A stretch of 11,597 nucleotides of DNA from a virus. Lineage: Duplodnaviria > Heunggongvirae > Uroviricota > Caudoviricetes. The stretch spans positions 1 through 11,597 of IMG/VR virus record IMGVR_UViG_638341087_000009; one strand, written 5' to 3'. Positions 1,788 to 8,717 of this stretch are shown here, in pieces (position 1 is the stretch's first letter; each line of letters begins with the position of its first letter). The position numbers were made by a program, and so were the translations under genes. The notes under the pieces were generated by a model. It worked only from the letters and a program-made list of their open reading frames with translations. It was not told the DNA's origin and did not search any database.

Positions 1788-1817
1788 ATCATAAAACACA
1801 TAAAATGTGTTAGTCAA
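1788..1817 (-). promoter_or_regulatory. pL-like sigma70 promoter for the leftward early operon
   Basis: Minus strand reads TTGACT (complement of 1812-1817), 18-bp spacer, TATGAT (complement of 1788-1793). Read directly from the sequence. Confidence 0.5.
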
Positions 1818-1840: not shown

Positions 1841-1872
1841 TAAAAAAACTCCCATTCAAGAGGTGATGGGAG
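1841..1872 (-). terminator. Intrinsic terminator ending the repressor/toxin-antitoxin transcript
   Basis: Stem 1849-1855 CTCCCAT / 1866-1872 ATGGGAG, followed on the minus strand by a 7-nt U tract (plus-strand A run 1842-1848). Immediately downstream of the ParE-like stop. Confidence 0.6.
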
Positions 1873-1883
1873 GTGGTTGATTA

Positions 1884-2171
1884 TTAACCGTTACCAGGAT
1901 ATTGCTGACGAGCATGTATCACGCTTACAATTTCAATGCTTGAAGTCGCTACCCTGTATAGGATTATGTAGTTAGGGTGGGTCACAATTTCTCTCAATCC
2001 AGAAACCCGTTCGCTTGGCGGGTATAGATACGGATGCTCAGATAGGGGCAGCACCGATGTTTCAATGCGTATTTTTAGTCTGCGCGCTGCCGGAGGGTTT
2101 TTTTTAGCAATGTAAGTTATAATCTGACTTAAATCATCGCGAGCAGACGGTAACCATAAAACGGGCAGCAT
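1884..2171 (-). CDS. parE: ParE/RelE-family type II toxin (95 aa)
   Basis: MLPVLWLPSARDDLSQIITYIAKKNPPAARR...YIILYRVATSSIEIVSVIHARQ fits the ParE pattern (L.W...A..DL..I..YIA...P.AA ... Y.I.YRV......I..V.HARQ). The start overlaps the upstream antitoxin stop (TAATG). The longer track ORF (136 aa) has an implausible Arg/Lys-rich N-terminal extension. Confidence 0.85.
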   Translation of the reverse strand: MLPVLWLPSARDDLSQIITYIAKKNPPAARRLKIRIETSVLPLSEHPYLYPPSERVSGLREIVTHPNYIILYRVATSSIEIVSVIHARQQYPGNG

Positions 2172-2362
2172 TACACGCTCCCGTTTTCCATGGCAATTTG
2201 ATTGATGATTTTTTCCATTTTTGCCATTACTTCGTCGTGCGGTATTGCTGGTCGTGGATCTGCAAGGCTTGCTGCAACCTTGGCGCGCAACCATTCGTTG
2301 TAACTGTTTTCTTGCTCGATAGTTTCAAATTCTGAAACTATTGGCGAAAGAACTGTGCTCAT
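2171..2362 (-). CDS. Cognate antitoxin (63 aa), ParD-like by context
   Basis: MSTVLSPIVSEFETIEQENSYNEWLRAKVAASLADPRPAIPHDEVMAKMEKIINQIAMENGSV. GAGAGG lies 7 nt upstream of the ATG; it is translationally coupled to parE. Assignment as antitoxin is strong; the exact family is less certain. Confidence 0.65.
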   Translation of the reverse strand: MSTVLSPIVSEFETIEQENSYNEWLRAKVAASLADPRPAIPHDEVMAKMEKIINQIAMENGSV

Positions 2363-2390: not shown

Positions 2391-2789
2391 TTATGCTCGA
2401 CGTCCTTTTTGGGCGGCGAGCCATCTTGCAACTGTGCGATCCATTGATTCTTTTTTGTCTTTCATGTCTTTAAGCATTTGTTCTTGCTCCTCTTCTGGGA
2501 AAGCCCCAAATGTTTGAAGCAAATCTCTCTGGCGCGGTCCTATTTTCATTGTATCAGGTACTACAACCTGTTCATCCTCGCTCGGAGGAAGCATGAACCA
2601 AAAAATAGGCCGAGCAGTTATTTGTGAAAGTCGATCTAAATTGTCAGGATTTGGACTAACCAAGCCTGCAGACCATCGCTGCACTGTTTGTTGCGACACT
2701 CCAACTAATTTCCCAAGCTCCGCCTGACTCCAGCCTGTTTCAGACAAGAGTTTCTTTATTCTATATGCAGTAATCTCGAGTGTTTTCAT
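2391..2789 (-). CDS. racR: Prophage repressor, RacR-like (XRE-family HTH), 132 aa from the proposed start
   Basis: HTH motif ...GWSQAELGKLVGVSQQTVQRWSAG... near the N-terminus. Start chosen at MKTLEIT (complement of 2787-2789); a TAGAAT -10 lies about 7 nt upstream, suggesting a near-leaderless mRNA like lambda cI from pRM. The alternative upstream start (2879) has no SD and would run through the operator region. Confidence 0.75.
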   Translation of the reverse strand: MKTLEITAYRIKKLLSETGWSQAELGKLVGVSQQTVQRWSAGLVSPNPDNLDRLSQITARPIFWFMLPPSEDEQVVVPDTMKIGPRQRDLLQTFGAFPEEEQEQMLKDMKDKKESMDRTVARWLAAQKGRRA

Positions 2790-2796
2790 AGTAACA

Positions 2797-2869
2797 ATTC
2801 TACTCAAAAAACGAGTAATGCGCGACACACGAAAATCGGGTTTACATATACACATTTTTTGTGTAATCT
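2797..2869. promoter_or_regulatory. Immunity switch region: divergent promoters and operator palindromes
   Basis: Leftward -10 TAGAAT (complement of 2797-2802) with a poor -35. Rightward TTTACA (2841-2846) with a -10-like TGTAAT/TAATCT (2862-2869). Palindrome TACACA-TTTTT-TGTGTA at 2849-2865 has the same half-sites as the pL operators. A second, different palindrome TACTC-N7-GAGTA sits at 2801-2817. Confidence 0.5.
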
Positions 2870-2895
2870 CCAGTCGCATGATGGAGGTACAAATA

Positions 2896-3168
2896 ATGAA
2901 TGATCATGTTAAGAAAAGGGTCGCGGGAAAATTTTCACAACGAGAACTGGCTATGTTAATGAGCACGAAACAACAAAGCGTATCTCGTTGGTTCAACTCT
3001 AAGTTCCCTGCATCAAGGGTGCTTCACTTGTGTCAATTGATGCAGTGGGAGGTTACTCCACACGAACTCCGACCAGACATTTACCCTAACCCAACCGACG
3101 GTTTACCCGTTGGATGTAAGGCTAACACATCAAATGCACCGGAGTTGATTCATGAAAATCAAGCATGA
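2896..3168 (+). CDS. ydaS: YdaS-like Cro/HTH protein (90 aa)
   Basis: GGAGG (2883-2887) 8 nt before ATG 2896. HTH-like ...FSQRELAMLMSTKQQSVSRW.... Divergent from the repressor, as in the Rac racR-ydaS-ydaT arrangement. The track ORF from 2818 is an upstream extension through the operator region. Confidence 0.7.
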   Translation: MNDHVKKRVAGKFSQRELAMLMSTKQQSVSRWFNSKFPASRVLHLCQLMQWEVTPHELRPDIYPNPTDGLPVGCKANTSNAPELIHENQA

Positions 3169-3577
3169 ACACATCCGCATGGCGATGAATGCCTGGGCGC
3201 ATCCGGACGGCGAGAAAGTACCGGCTGCGAAAATTACCAAAGCGTATTTCGAACTGGGTATGACGTTCCCGGAACTGTATGACGACAGCCATCCGGAAGC
3301 CCTGGCTCGCAATACCCAGAAAATTTTCCGCTGGGTAGAGAAAGACACTCCTGATGCGGTTAAAAAAATTCAGGCGTTGTTACCAGCTATCGAAAAAGCA
3401 ATGCCACCTCTGCTGGTGGCCCGAATGCGCAGCCATAGCTCAGCCTATTTTCGGGAACTGGTGGAGACGCGGGAACGACTGGTGAGAGACGCTGATGATT
3501 TTGTCGCAGTGGCGATCGCTGGTTTCAACCAGATGAATCGTGGTGGCCCTGCAGGAAATATTGTGGCTGTGCATTGA
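3152..3577 (+). CDS. ydaT: YdaT-like protein (141 aa)
   Basis: ATG 3152 with GGAG 7 nt upstream; overlaps the ydaS 3' end by 17 nt. Sequence MKIKHEHIRMAMNAWAHPDGEKVPAAKITKAYFELGMTF... and the synteny recall Rac prophage YdaT. Confidence 0.7.
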   Translation: MKIKHEHIRMAMNAWAHPDGEKVPAAKITKAYFELGMTFPELYDDSHPEALARNTQKIFRWVEKDTPDAVKKIQALLPAIEKAMPPLLVARMRSHSSAYFRELVETRERLVRDADDFVAVAIAGFNQMNRGGPAGNIVAVH

Positions 3578-8386: not shown

Positions 8387-8440
8387 TGCTGCGGGCGCTT
8401 GAGGCTGTCTGCCTCGGGCATGCCACCGTAAGGCAGACAG

Positions 8441-8512
8441 AGAAAAGCCCCAGTTAACATTACGCGTCCGGCAAGACGCTTAACATTAATCTGAGGCCAT
8501 ATCTATGCTCTA
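8441..8512 (-). ncRNA. Candidate Sok-like antisense RNA (about 70 nt)
   Basis: Weak minus-strand promoter (TTGCCT, complement of 8543-8548; 17-bp spacer; TAACCT, complement of 8520-8525). Transcript would be antisense to the mok-frame SD and ATG (8493-8507). It would end in a minus-strand hairpin (arms 8491-8497 / 8447-8453, inner stem 8464-8468 / 8475-8479) followed by UUUUCU. Structure-based inference only. Confidence 0.3.
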
Positions 8513-8561
8513 CACACGTAGGTTAGCCTCTTACGTGCCGAAAGGCAAGGAGAAGCAGGCT

Positions 8562-8717
8562 ATGAAGCAGCAAAAGGCGATGCTAATCGCCCTGATCGTC
8601 ATCTGTTTAACCGTCATAGTGACGGCACTGGTAACGAGGAAAGACCTCTGCGAGGTACGAATCCGAACCGGCCAGACGGAGGTCGCTGTCTTCACAGCTT
8701 ACGAACCTGAGGAGTAA
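8562..8717 (+). CDS. hokD: Hok/Gef-family type I toxin (51 aa), closest to HokD/RelF; in-frame Mok-like extension from ATG 8505
   Basis: MKQQKAMLIALIVICLTVIVTALVTRKDLCEVRIRTGQTEVAVFTAYEPEE is the Hok family signature (transmembrane helix plus ...TRK.LCE..IR.G..EVAAF.AYE). AAGGAG (8547-8552) lies 9 nt before ATG 8562. The upstream in-frame ATG 8505 with its own GAGG gives a 70-aa form, as in chromosomal mok genes. Confidence 0.85.
   Translation: MKQQKAMLIALIVICLTVIVTALVTRKDLCEVRIRTGQTEVAVFTAYEPEE

Follow-up and report, generated by a model that had tools for sequence, protein, structure and literature searches.

In the right operator region (OR) of phage lambda, the sites OR1, OR2 and OR3 are read by CI and Cro, and the transcript of the repressor maintenance promoter, PRM, is leaderless. 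In phage 434, where the operators have the form ACAA-N6-TTGT and OR3 deviates at position 4, the recognition helix opens with Gln-Gln and the A/T-rich, uncontacted centre of the operator modulates affinity. A switch with the same division of labor has been described for the cryptic prophage CP-933P (Sp12) of E. coli O157:H7, in which PaaR2 acts as the CI analogue, YdaS as the Cro analogue and YdaT as the CII analogue, and in which a paaA2-parE2 pair is embedded (PMC8630535, PMC9986795). Within the CP-933P intergenic region PaaR2 protects approximately 78 bp and YdaS approximately 65 bp, both footprints overlap both promoters, and the repeats present there have been described as four inverted repeats and three pseudosymmetric operators (PMC8630535). 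YdaS occupies the repressor promoter first, and there it is a stronger repressor than PaaR2; PaaR2 and YdaS each repress PL approximately 100-fold, and low levels of PaaR2 activate PRM933P (PMC8630535). The PaaR2 transcript was found to be leaderless by a combination of 5' RACE, N-terminal sequencing and mass spectrometry (PMC8630535). PaaR2 has no S24 domain and shows no response to mitomycin C. The function of the YdaT homologue has been described in both CP-933P and Rac (PMC8630535, PMC9986795, PMC11879457).

The locus examined here has the same overall layout. It lies within an 11,597-bp stretch of tailed-phage DNA, referred to below as the window. The repressor gene (2391-2789, minus strand) encodes a 132-residue protein with an N-terminal HTH_3 domain (Pfam, E = 6.8e-10) whose recognition helix reads SQQTVQRW, followed by a C-terminal helical domain of the PaaR type. 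All of its Pfam matches are to HTH families, and the S24 peptidase domain is absent. A phmmer search against the PDB returned weak but consistent matches to the N-terminal domains of P22 c2 (E = 7.5e-4) and of the 434 repressor (E = 0.04-0.07). The description of this protein as RacR-like in the first-pass annotation is wrong at the level of sequence, as the BLASTP comparison gives E = 1.0. The 132-residue start is the one chosen by PGAP in near-identical genomes. A 162-residue reading frame from the ATG at 2879, which is listed in some databases as P0001, was considered as the real repressor gene and rejected, since it has no Shine-Dalgarno sequence (upstream of its ATG are bases complementary to the GGAGG of ydaS), could be expressed only from a promoter within ydaS, and carries an unconserved extension that stop codons interrupt in 5 of 10 relatives; PGAP, in addition, selects the 132-residue start.

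Facing the repressor gene are genes of the YdaS and YdaT families, which match PF15943 and PF06254. The ydaS-like gene (2896-3168, plus strand; 90 residues) is the Cro equivalent. Its product matches the Pfam family YdaS_toxin (one of this pair of families) above cut-off with E = 2.2e-10, is 32% identical to K-12 YdaS over 63 residues (E = 8e-7), has the recognition helix KQQSVSRW and resembles the prophage Cro protein 3bd1 in the PDB, in agreement with its earlier identification as a Cro-like YdaS. The ydaT-like gene (3152-3577, plus strand; YdaT_toxin, E = 1.1e-9) is the CII equivalent. At the junction of the two genes is a YdaT-box, TTGATT-CATGAA-AATCAA (3145-3162), which has the ydaT ATG inside its spacer, is an exact match to the TTGATT-N6-AATCAA footprinted in CP-933P and differs by one base from the Rac box. 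This box is expected to mark the establishment (PRE-like) control site. Behind the repressor gene, a paaA2-like antitoxin gene (2171-2362, minus strand; Pfam PaaA2, E = 1.7e-22; PDB PaaA2, E = 4e-23) and a parE2-like toxin gene (1884-2171, minus strand; ParE_toxin, E = 2.2e-17) are co-transcribed over 1884-2362. The repressor-paaA2-parE2 operon ends after parE in an intrinsic terminator (1842-1872, minus strand), an inverted repeat of CTCCCAT, a 10-nt loop and ATGGGAG that is followed by seven T residues. The scan tool did not call this terminator, as the loop exceeds 8 nt.

The intergenic region between the repressor gene and the ydaS-like gene spans 2790-2895, or 106 bp. The region is divergent, as had been proposed, while the length of 107 bp given previously is corrected by placing the ydaS-like start at 2896 rather than 2897. 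The start at 2896 is in frame, is preceded by GGAGG at 2883-2887 and was chosen by PGAP in two near-identical genomes. Two palindromes can be read directly in this DNA at the positions first reported, TACTC-AAAAAAC-GAGTA at 2801-2817 and TACACA-TTTTT-TGTGTA at 2849-2865. The view that they represent two distinct half-site types is not supported, as both have the same 17-bp format and a third related site, overlooked earlier, lies between them at 2826-2842. Both palindromes fit TACNC-N7-GNGTA and have 14 of 17 bases in common, the mismatches being one symmetric arm position and one spacer position. In a repeat comparison the TACTC site groups with the two sites at the leftward promoter pL at 78% identity. 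When the 106 bp were shuffled 20,000 times with dinucleotide content preserved, a single 5+7+5 palindrome arose in 11% and a 6+5+6 palindrome in 3.0%, so a lone palindrome of the first kind could be a product of chance in an A/T-rich region. Two or more perfect 5+7+5 palindromes occur in only 0.53% of the shuffles, however, and the palindromes also recur at pL and are conserved across at least 11 divergent loci, leaving chance with a negligible probability. The conservation data in fact already refute it, and on sequence grounds they leave no doubt that the operator sites are real.

The three sites are designated OR3, OR2 and OR1 in order from the repressor gene. OR3 (TACTCAAAAAACGAGTA, 2801-2817) covers the first two bases of the PRM -10 element and most of the PRM spacer, and its occupation should shut off repressor synthesis. 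OR2 (CACACGAAAATCGGGTT, 2826-2842) has spacings of 25 bp to OR3 and 23 bp to OR1; it overlaps the -35 element of the rightward promoter (PR) by 2 bp and abuts the PRM -35 element. OR1 (TACACATTTTTTGTGTA, 2849-2865) is a perfect palindrome that fills the 17-bp spacer of PR and extends over the first two bases of its -10 element, and its occupation should block transcription of ydaS and ydaT. An operator matrix derived from related loci only was applied to the window. The scan identified five sites, with scores of 23.8 (OR1, the highest in the window), 20.9 (OL1), 18.8 (OL2), 18.3 (OR3, fourth best of 11,581 positions) and 14.5 (OR2, fifth best); the next match scores 7.9 and merely overlaps OR1. 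As judged from the sequences, the consensus of this operator family is (T/A)ACAC-N7-GTGT(A/T) with an A/T-rich N7. The switch therefore has three related operators that overlap two promoters, as in lambda, found with an independent matrix and at fixed spacing.

The two remaining sites confirm the earlier proposal that the TACACA-type site is common to the pL operators, as ACACA-N5-TGTGT is present twice at pL. OL1 (AACACATAAAATGTGTT, 1795-1811) is located in the pL spacer, and OL2 (AACACAAAAAAAGTGTG, 1816-1832) is 21 bp from OL1 and has a 2-bp overlap with the pL -35 element. The promoter itself (1788-1817, minus strand; TTGACT, 18 bp, TATGAT) was called by the promoter scan with 10 of 12 matches and heads an operon that runs from DUF1391 (assigned by Pfam) to dicF (Rfam match to DicF at 92-143). 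Operators of the OR family are thus present at the leftward early promoter, as in lambda, and in 10 related loci, too, the repressor operon is followed by a pair of sites 21 bp apart. A third OL site was sought upstream of OL2 and none was found; the ACTC at that place is part of the stem of the parE terminator, and no second half-site accompanies it.

The same consensus promoter scan called neither PR, whose -10 element has only 3 of 6 matches, nor PRM, whose -35 element is poor, and both promoters were assigned from their position, from relatives with better hexamers and from the CP-933P precedent. PR (2841-2869, plus strand) consists of TTTACA (2841-2846), a 17-bp spacer and TAATCT (2864-2869), which places the TACACA palindrome in the spacer of the ydaS promoter as originally proposed. 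The corresponding -10 position in relatives reads TATACT, TAATTT or TATTTA. On the minus strand, the PRM -10 element TAGAAT (2797-2802) lies beside the TACTC palindrome, and the distance to the repressor ATG (2789 to 2787), previously estimated as about 7 nt, is exactly 7 nt (TGTTACT, 2796 to 2790). With the -10 element in this position, transcription is expected to begin at the A of the ATG or at an adjacent base. A hexamer of the form TA(G/C/A)AAT is found 6-8 nt before a conserved ATG in all 11 non-redundant related switches, the repressor start has no Shine-Dalgarno sequence, and the frame upstream of the ATG is closed by a stop within 2-5 codons in 5 of 10 relatives. The conserved geometry of the -10 element and ATG, the closed upstream frames and the CP-933P precedent support the earlier suggestion that transcription from the maintenance promoter yields a leaderless repressor mRNA, which is very probably the case, with a predicted start at or beside position 2789.

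The putative -35 element of PRM (TCGCGC on the coding strand, 2820-2825) was placed from spacing only, at a 17-bp spacer; it has 2 of 6 matches to consensus and abuts OR2. A weak -35 element beside an operator would fit an activator-dependent promoter such as lambda PRM. In lambda, the OR2 center is approximately at -42 relative to the PRM start. The OR2 center here is approximately at -45 relative to the presumed PRM start, and because this is 3 bp further away than in lambda, activation of PRM is uncertain.

Further insights come from 11 non-redundant related switches, which are 65-77% identical in their repressors and have an invariant helix GVSQQTVQRW. These relatives come from several genera and were gathered by a protein search with look-ups of the encoding contigs and from IMG/VR; a scan of contigs for the repressor yielded one Rahnella locus. 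The sites are conserved in position and sequence in at least 11 divergent loci, with an OR3-OR2 spacing of 25 bp in 13 of 13 rows and an OR2-OR1 spacing of 22-23 bp, while the DNA between the sites diverges. Both halves of OR1 (ACAC and GTGT) are present in all 10 relatives that possess an OR1 site. OR2 follows the pattern CACACN-W5-NG(A/G/T)GTT in every relative at a constant 25 bp from OR3; its left half is ACAC in 11 of 11, while its right half is ACTC in 6, ACAC in 4 and ACCC in 1. In alleles with a 98% identical repressor OR2 reads CACACAAAAAACGAGTT, and the L002 allele (...AAAAATGGGTT) is a better match. OR2 most often takes the form of an ACAC+ACTC hybrid, and such hybrids are also found at OL in relatives, where one site is ACTC/ACTC. 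A site at the OR3 position is kept in all relatives with a left half of TAC(T/C)CA and a variable right half. Specifically, the left half is ACTC in 6 and ACCC in 5, and the right half is ACAA in 5, ACTC in 3, ACCC in 2 and ACAC in 1.

These data bear on whether the TACTC palindrome is an operator at all. Its conservation could instead reflect the elements of PRM (the -10, spacer and A-tract) or binding by another factor, for example YdaT or a nucleoid protein of the host, since the palindrome overlaps the -10 element by two bases, fills the spacer and has an A-tract at its center, and since part of the Rac intergenic region is likewise protected by YdaT. Promoter spacers do not usually retain their sequence, however, and TAC.CAAA and GTA are kept 17 bp apart in all relatives. 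The length, outer bases and A/T-rich center are those of the other four sites, and a matrix built from foreign loci scores the site at 18.3. The YdaT box, moreover, is unrelated in sequence and is located at 3145-3162. A role for the palindrome other than that of an operator is thus highly improbable.

A second question is whether the two palindromes are read by different proteins. It was originally proposed that two half-site types indicate two DNA-binding proteins rather than graded sites as in lambda. In this scenario the repressor would bind only the ACAC-type sites (OR1, OL1 and OL2), YdaS would bind only the ACTC palindrome, and the two proteins would not compete. The left half of OR3 does lend itself to such an explanation, as 12 of 12 loci have AC(T/C)C there and none has ACAC, while OR1 and OR2 carry ACAC as their left half without exception; the symmetric change in the window also produces a perfect second palindrome, and YdaS of CP-933P acts first and more strongly at the repressor promoter. 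Yet a single arm position is all that distinguishes the two site types, a dimer specific for a single type would be left with half a site at the hybrid sites of OR2 and OL, and the right half of OR3 is not kept as GAGTA, being TTGTA in 5 of 11 relatives. Results from CP-933P, where PaaR2 as well as YdaS protects the two promoters and PL is repressed by either protein, also argue against dedicated readers.

The recognition helices of the two proteins point in the same direction. The HTH segments of the repressor (WSQAELGKLVGVSQQTVQRW) and YdaS (FSQRELAMLMSTKQQSVSRW) are identical at 10 of 20 positions (E = 3e-5), and Gln-Gln opens the recognition helix in both. The consensus half-sites contain ACA, which the Gln-Gln pair may contact by analogy with the 434 structures. 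The hybrid sites and the similarity of the helices (QQTVQRW in the repressor, QQSVSRW in YdaS) suggest one operator family for both proteins, and separate, dedicated readers are unlikely. The intermediate third site, the hybrid OR2 and OL sites, the similar helices and the CP-933P footprints all speak for graded sites, contrary to the initial reading.

We therefore favor, with a probability of roughly 75%, the interpretation that the 106 bp are the OR of a lambdoid, CP-933P-type switch with three graded operators shared by the repressor and the Cro-like YdaS. The underlying arrangement noted at the outset, a divergent immunity switch with an HTH repressor gene opposite a YdaS/Cro-like gene and with matching operators at pL, is borne out. 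From the assembled features and by analogy we infer the following partition of the proteins among the sites, order of occupancy and activation of PRM. The repressor would fill OR1 and OR2 (and OL1 and OL2) first, silencing ydaS-ydaT and the pL operon, and repressor bound at OR2 would probably help the weak repressor promoter. At high concentrations of repressor, OR3 would also be filled, thereby limiting its own synthesis. YdaS would read the same sites through its similar recognition helix with a preference for OR3, such that repressor synthesis would be turned off first and its own promoter later. The repressor transcript is predicted to begin at its own AUG and hence to be leaderless. As the repressor has no self-cleavage domain, the switch would not be flipped by RecA-driven cleavage.

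The repressor-proximal (left) half of OR3 may influence which of the two proteins is the first to bind. At position 4 of this half, the consensus A is found in 0 of 12 loci, and the deviation is symmetric in the window. The difference is conserved and is not drift, and it could mean that OR3 has a different preferred reader. A more specific proposal, that position 4 of OR3 is a one-base discriminator that inverts the affinity order of YdaS and the repressor while OR2 is deliberately kept hybrid, is less likely than not. No correlation between variants of the YdaS helix and variants of the OR3 half-site was seen across 12 loci, which is too small a sample to speak against one. An origin of the position-4 change in the creation of an extended -10 element (TGn) for PRM was rejected, as the register is off by one. 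In a neighboring heteroimmune group (L003-L005 and L024-L038), the best palindrome is located at the OR3 position and only half-sites are found at OR2 and OR1, making it unsafe to assume that the best palindrome is the first site for the repressor. If the discriminator proposal is correct, the family of the present switch would offer an unusually clean natural series of how two similar HTH proteins divide a common set of operators, and the heteroimmune group, in which the palindrome gradient is reversed, would provide a natural contrast.

This immunity type is rare, being present in 12 of 5,426 complete E. coli genomes. Within the phage collection searched, no member has this immunity, and the best repressor matches are 31% over the full length (Gifsy-1/2) and 50% over the N-terminus. 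A full-text literature search for the operator sequences found no paper, and a search for newer work on PaaR2 found nothing defining operators. The switch thus belongs to a known kind and has a new immunity specificity, one that is not described in searchable papers. Its architecture and logic have already been established for lambda and shown experimentally for CP-933P, and no long-standing question is opened. What is gained is a full operator set for a rare immunity type, comprising three OR sites, two OL sites, both promoters and a predicted leaderless start. The state of the switch matters for host physiology, since a ParE-type toxin-antitoxin pair is under its control, as is the pL operon with DicF, a cell-division inhibitor RNA, at its end. 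The approximately 14 alleles available are in effect ready-made mutants for testing how a repressor and a Cro-like protein share sites.

Comparison with known systems places this switch closest in detail to CP-933P. Similar to Rac of E. coli K-12 (racR-ydaS-ydaT), it has the same positional layout, homologues of YdaS and YdaT, and a nearly identical YdaT box. In contrast to Rac, its repressor is not detectably related to RacR, and Rac has a 123-bp intergenic region with TTAGGC-type repeats and no paaA2-parE2 pair. The N-terminal HTH of the repressor resembles the P22 c2 and 434 domains (E = 7.5e-4 and 0.04), and the switch has in common with 434 the Gln-Gln in both proteins, half-sites that start with ACA, A/T-rich centers and a promoter-distal difference at one half-site position. 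The sites are 17 bp here rather than 14 bp, however, the C-terminal domain differs, and the weak likeness is limited to the HTH. With lambda it shares a short region, bearing both promoters, between divergent repressor and cro-like genes, three related 17-bp operators spaced approximately 23-25 bp center to center, outer sites that each overlap one promoter, a middle site adjoining the weak repressor-promoter -35 element, matching OL sites and a repressor mRNA predicted to be leaderless. Unlike lambda, the proteins have no sequence similarity to CI or Cro, the repressor has no S24 self-cleavage domain, there are two OL sites instead of three at a distance of approximately 1 kb from OR, a toxin-antitoxin pair occupies the position of rexAB, and the CII analogue is YdaT.

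The likeness to CP-933P is more extensive. Both have the gene order parE2-paaA2-repressor followed by ydaS-ydaT and replication genes, with the repressor, paaA2 and parE2 in one operon that here ends in a terminator after parE. Both also have a short divergent region with both promoters, the leaderless geometry of the repressor start, operators that recur at a pL promoter located beyond the toxin-antitoxin genes, an exact YdaT-box where ydaS and ydaT meet and a repressor that lacks a peptidase domain. The PaaR2 fragments available for comparison, which are only those encoded by primers, read AFPEDEQ and ...QKCRRA* toward the C-terminus and are similar to AFPEEEQ and ...QKGRRA* here; the N-termini differ, with MQKKE... 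in PaaR2 and MKTLE... in the present repressor. The CP-933P region is 97 bp with the repeat consensus GTTTAGTAA in a more complicated pattern, whereas that in the window is 106 bp with three clean 17-bp ACAC-N7-GTGT sites. Judged by sequence, the operators differ and the two switches do not have the same specificity; the switch described here is a heteroimmune relative of CP-933P.

The window covers the early region of an Escherichia coli prophage of the lambdoid (Rac/Qin/CP-933P-like) kind and shows 99.3–99.7% identity to E. coli TUM1881 across the part compared. The minus strand carries a row of three genes in head-to-tail order, beginning with that of a 132-aa helix-turn-helix repressor (2391–2789) and continuing with a paaA2-type antitoxin gene (2171–2362) and a parE-type toxin gene (1884–2171), both assigned by family matches. 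This row is closed by an intrinsic terminator (1842–1872, minus; CTCCCAT, a 10-nt loop, ATGGGAG and seven T residues), which lies 12 nt past the parE stop codon and immediately upstream of OL2/pL, and which went unreported by the scan tool because its loop exceeds 8 nt. On the plus strand are a YdaS-family gene (2896–3168), a YdaT-family gene (3152–3577), and DnaT-like and lambda-P-like replication genes. The repressor and ydaS starts are identical in the PGAP annotation of two near-identical genomes. As the ydaS ATG is at 2896, the divergent intergenic region (2790–2895) measures 106 bp, one base less than in the first-pass annotation. The late-early part of the prophage also contains a hok/sok-type element (8393–8567, plus; Rfam RF01794 sok, 114 bits).

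The divergent region carries TACTC-N7-GAGTA at 2801–2817 (OR3) and TACACA-T5-TGTGTA at 2849–2865 (OR1), exactly where the first-pass annotation had placed them, the latter flanked by TTTACA (2841–2846) and TAATCT (2864–2869). When the 106 bp are shuffled with dinucleotide composition preserved, 0.53% of the shuffles contain two perfect 5+7+5 palindromes. The proposal that an operator is shared with pL also holds, as ACACA-N5-TGTGT recurs at 1795–1811 (OL1) and 1816–1832 (OL2), both carried by this strong leftward promoter (TTGACT-18-TATGAT). The two intergenic palindromes had further been taken as two half-site types, each with its own dedicated protein, the repressor and the Cro-like YdaS. 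The sites are, however, identical at 14 of 17 positions; they match in length and outer bases (TAC...GTA), and the centre of each is A/T-rich. A repeat finder also puts the pL pair and the TACTC site into one group at 78% identity. Furthermore, a third site, CACACGAAAATCGGGTT (OR2, 2826–2842), lies midway, at 25 bp from OR3 and 23 bp from OR1. A symmetric operator matrix, derived exclusively from related loci (neither the window nor its near-identical copies contributed), was run across the whole window. The best match is OR1 (position 2849, score 23.8), followed by OL1 (1795, 20.9), OL2 (1816, 18.8), OR3 (2801, 18.3) and OR2 (2826, 14.5). The sixth match scores far lower (7.9) and only overlaps the OR1 match at 2849, indicating that the window has five operators, OR1–OR3 between the divergent genes and OL1–OL2 at pL. 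The rightward promoter (PR) and the repressor maintenance promoter (PRM) were both uncalled by a simple promoter scan of the window.

Protein searches identified many repressors 65–77% identical to that of the window, in which the recognition helix GVSQQTVQRW is invariant. The DNA of eleven related loci (Rahnella, Enterobacter, Salmonella and metagenomes) was taken for comparison, along with extra alleles from IMG/VR, two of them with a 98% identical repressor. The set of five related sites on three promoters is conserved among these switches, and the intervening DNA is divergent. OR3 lies 10–12 nt from the conserved repressor ATG in every locus, the OR3–OR2 distance is exactly 25 bp in 13 of 13 rows, the OR2–OR1 distance is 22–23 bp (OR1 is lost in one locus), and the OL pairs are 21 bp apart in ten related loci. 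A half-site gradient from OR1 through OR2 to OR3 is likewise conserved. Both OR1 halves are ACAC (10/10 left, 10/10 right); OR2 has ACAC on the left (11/11) and ACTC (6), ACAC (4) or ACCC (1) on the right; and OR3 has ACTC (6) or ACCC (5) on the left and ACAA (5), ACTC (3), ACCC (2) or ACAC (1) on the right. In both alleles with 98% repressor identity, OR2 is CACACAAAAAACGAGTT, which contains one half of each proposed type. Related OL sites include an ACTC or ACCC half joined to an ACAC half, and one is ACTC/ACTC. A dimer dedicated to one half-site type would obtain only half a site at such hybrids, which are simply explained by one site family of graded quality. The divergent immunity switch is supported, while two operator types for two proteins are not supported, given the 14/17 identity, the third site and the hybrid half-sites. 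What survives of the half-site contrast is the fourth base in the left half of OR3, which deviates from consensus in every locus, a conservation indicating selection; this deviation may well set the preference of YdaS.

One related locus, L016 (1396–1501), retains OR3 and OR2 without OR1 and a recognizable PR at the usual distance; its switch may have decayed or been rearranged. The PR -10 is TAATCT in the window, TAACCT in other alleles of the same immunity type (L002, L020, L023) and TATACT in more distant relatives; the rightward promoter of the window's E. coli lineage may have been weakened.

The repressor -10 had been read as TAGAAT, and this hexamer is found at 2802–2797 (minus), separated by 7 nt from the ATG at 2789. 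The -10 is TA(G/C/A)AAT in each of the eleven non-redundant loci and ends 6–8 nt ahead of the conserved ATG, leaving no room for a ribosome-binding site. A 162-aa frame from the ATG at 2879, called in some databases (P0001), was rejected as the repressor gene; it has no Shine-Dalgarno sequence, its promoter would have to be inside ydaS, and its extension meets stop codons within 2–5 codons in 5 of 10 relatives. In the O157:H7 prophage CP-933P, 5' RACE maps the 5' end of the transcript of the CI analogue paaR2 to the start codon, and N-terminal sequencing and mass spectrometry place translation at the transcript's first codon (Jurenas et al., PMC8630535). Together, the conserved -10/ATG geometry, the closed upstream frames and the CP-933P experiments support the earlier suggestion, and a leaderless repressor mRNA is the best reading of the window's switch.

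In the most likely mechanism, the repressor would first fill OR1, OR2, OL1 and OL2, blocking pL and PR (ydaS–ydaT and the replication genes). The pL operon passes through DUF1391 genes to DicF (92–143, minus; Rfam RF00039, 75 bits). This operon, controlled by OL1/OL2, thus resembles the Qin dicBF operon, and the repressor probably silences a cell-division inhibitor. The PRM -35 is very weak (TCGCGC, 2/6) and adjoins OR2, from which bound repressor may stimulate its own promoter. The OR2 centre lies ~45 bp upstream of the presumed repressor transcript start, three bases further out than in lambda, making PRM activation uncertain. OR3, the poorest match, would be filled last by repressor, limiting repressor synthesis, and YdaS would prefer OR3, shutting off the repressor promoter first. 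At 3145–3162 lies TTGATT-CATGAA-AATCAA, a YdaT-box that fits TTGATT-N6-AATCAA exactly and whose spacer includes the ydaT start codon (3152); the CP-933P site seen in footprints is the same. The primer published for PRE933P, ATGCGGATGTGTTCATGCTT, corresponds to the reverse complement of 3161–3180. YdaT bound to this box would drive a leftward establishment promoter (PRE). A promoter-like TTAACA-17-GAAAAT with TG ahead of the -10 (2931–2959, minus) lies inside ydaS, aimed at the repressor gene, and may be a PRE-like or antisense promoter; a reverse promoter within ydaS has been reported for Rac (PMC11879457). The repressor lacks an S24 peptidase (self-cleavage) domain, and thus induction cannot be RecA-mediated self-cleavage. 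Its only full-length phage relatives in the collection searched (records H92–H97) are of the Gifsy-1/Gifsy-2 type (~31% identity). Repressors of this type are inactivated by antirepressors, not cleavage, and this kinship hints at a possible induction route for the prophage.

Other specificities occur among the relatives. A heteroimmune sister group (L003–L005, L024–L038) has the repressor helix AQQSVQKW and the YdaS helix PQQVVSRW. Its palindrome is perfect at the OR3 position (TACA(C/T)-A7-GTGTA), and the OR2 and OR1 positions have no more than GTGT half-sites. This gradient is opposite to that of the window's group, indicating that palindrome quality alone does not tell which protein binds first. 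For the sister group, the likely leaderless start lies three codons ahead of the annotated ATG, at another ATG in the same frame (TAAAAT, 6 nt, ATG). A paaA/parE-linked relative in E. coli O157:H7 PV15-279 (L018, 2261–2368; repressor helix TQQTVQQW) has three sites of the same 17-bp format with ACAG/ACAA halves (TACAG-N7-CTGTT, ACAAT-N5-ACTGT, TACAG-N7-TTGTA), a specificity change that goes with the final residues of the recognition helix.

The window's switch is a new immunity specificity in a known, experimentally characterized kind of switch. This specificity is rare: among 5,426 complete E. coli genomes 12 carry it, no phage in the searched collection does, and the operator sequences have no match in searchable papers. 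The analysis is mainly of value for defining the operator set cleanly by comparison and for raising the testable hypothesis of a one-base discriminator.

CP-933P, the nearest system studied by experiment, shares the window's gene order, with paaR2-paaA2-parE2 facing ydaS-ydaT. In its 97-bp intergenic region, PaaR2 protects ~78 bp and YdaS ~65 bp, each overlapping both promoters; PaaR2 at low levels activates PRM and represses PR, YdaS at low concentration binds the repressor promoter and, at higher concentration, its own, and each protein represses a PL promoter with similar operators (PMC8630535). PaaR2 has no peptidase motif and is unresponsive to mitomycin C, and Jurenas et al. describe an apparent competition between the proteins for binding sequences, whose exact identity they give as still to be determined (PMC8630535). 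The C-terminal motifs encoded by PaaR2 primer sequences resemble those of the window's repressor, whereas the CP-933P operator repeats (consensus GTTTAGTAA) and the repressor N-terminus (MQKKE... in PaaR2, MKTLE... in the window) differ, suggesting that the window is a heteroimmune relative. As judged from sequence, it is the same machine with another DNA-binding specificity. RacR of K-12 has no detectable kinship to the window's repressor and the Rac intergenic repeats differ from the window's, while K-12 YdaS is a homologue of the YdaS-like protein.

The repressor N-terminal domain is similar to those of the P22 c2 and 434 repressors, and the YdaS-like protein to a prophage Cro of known structure. 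Alignment of the two helix-turn-helix segments (repressor WSQAELGKLVGVSQQTVQRW, YdaS-like FSQRELAMLMSTKQQSVSRW) gives 10 identities in 20 positions, and QQ-x-(V/I)-(S/F)-RW is kept by all YdaS relatives in the set. In the 434 system, a Gln-Gln recognition helix is common to repressor and Cro, which bind the same ACA-containing operators and are told apart by one OR3 half-site position. The window's switch appears to use the 434 solution too.
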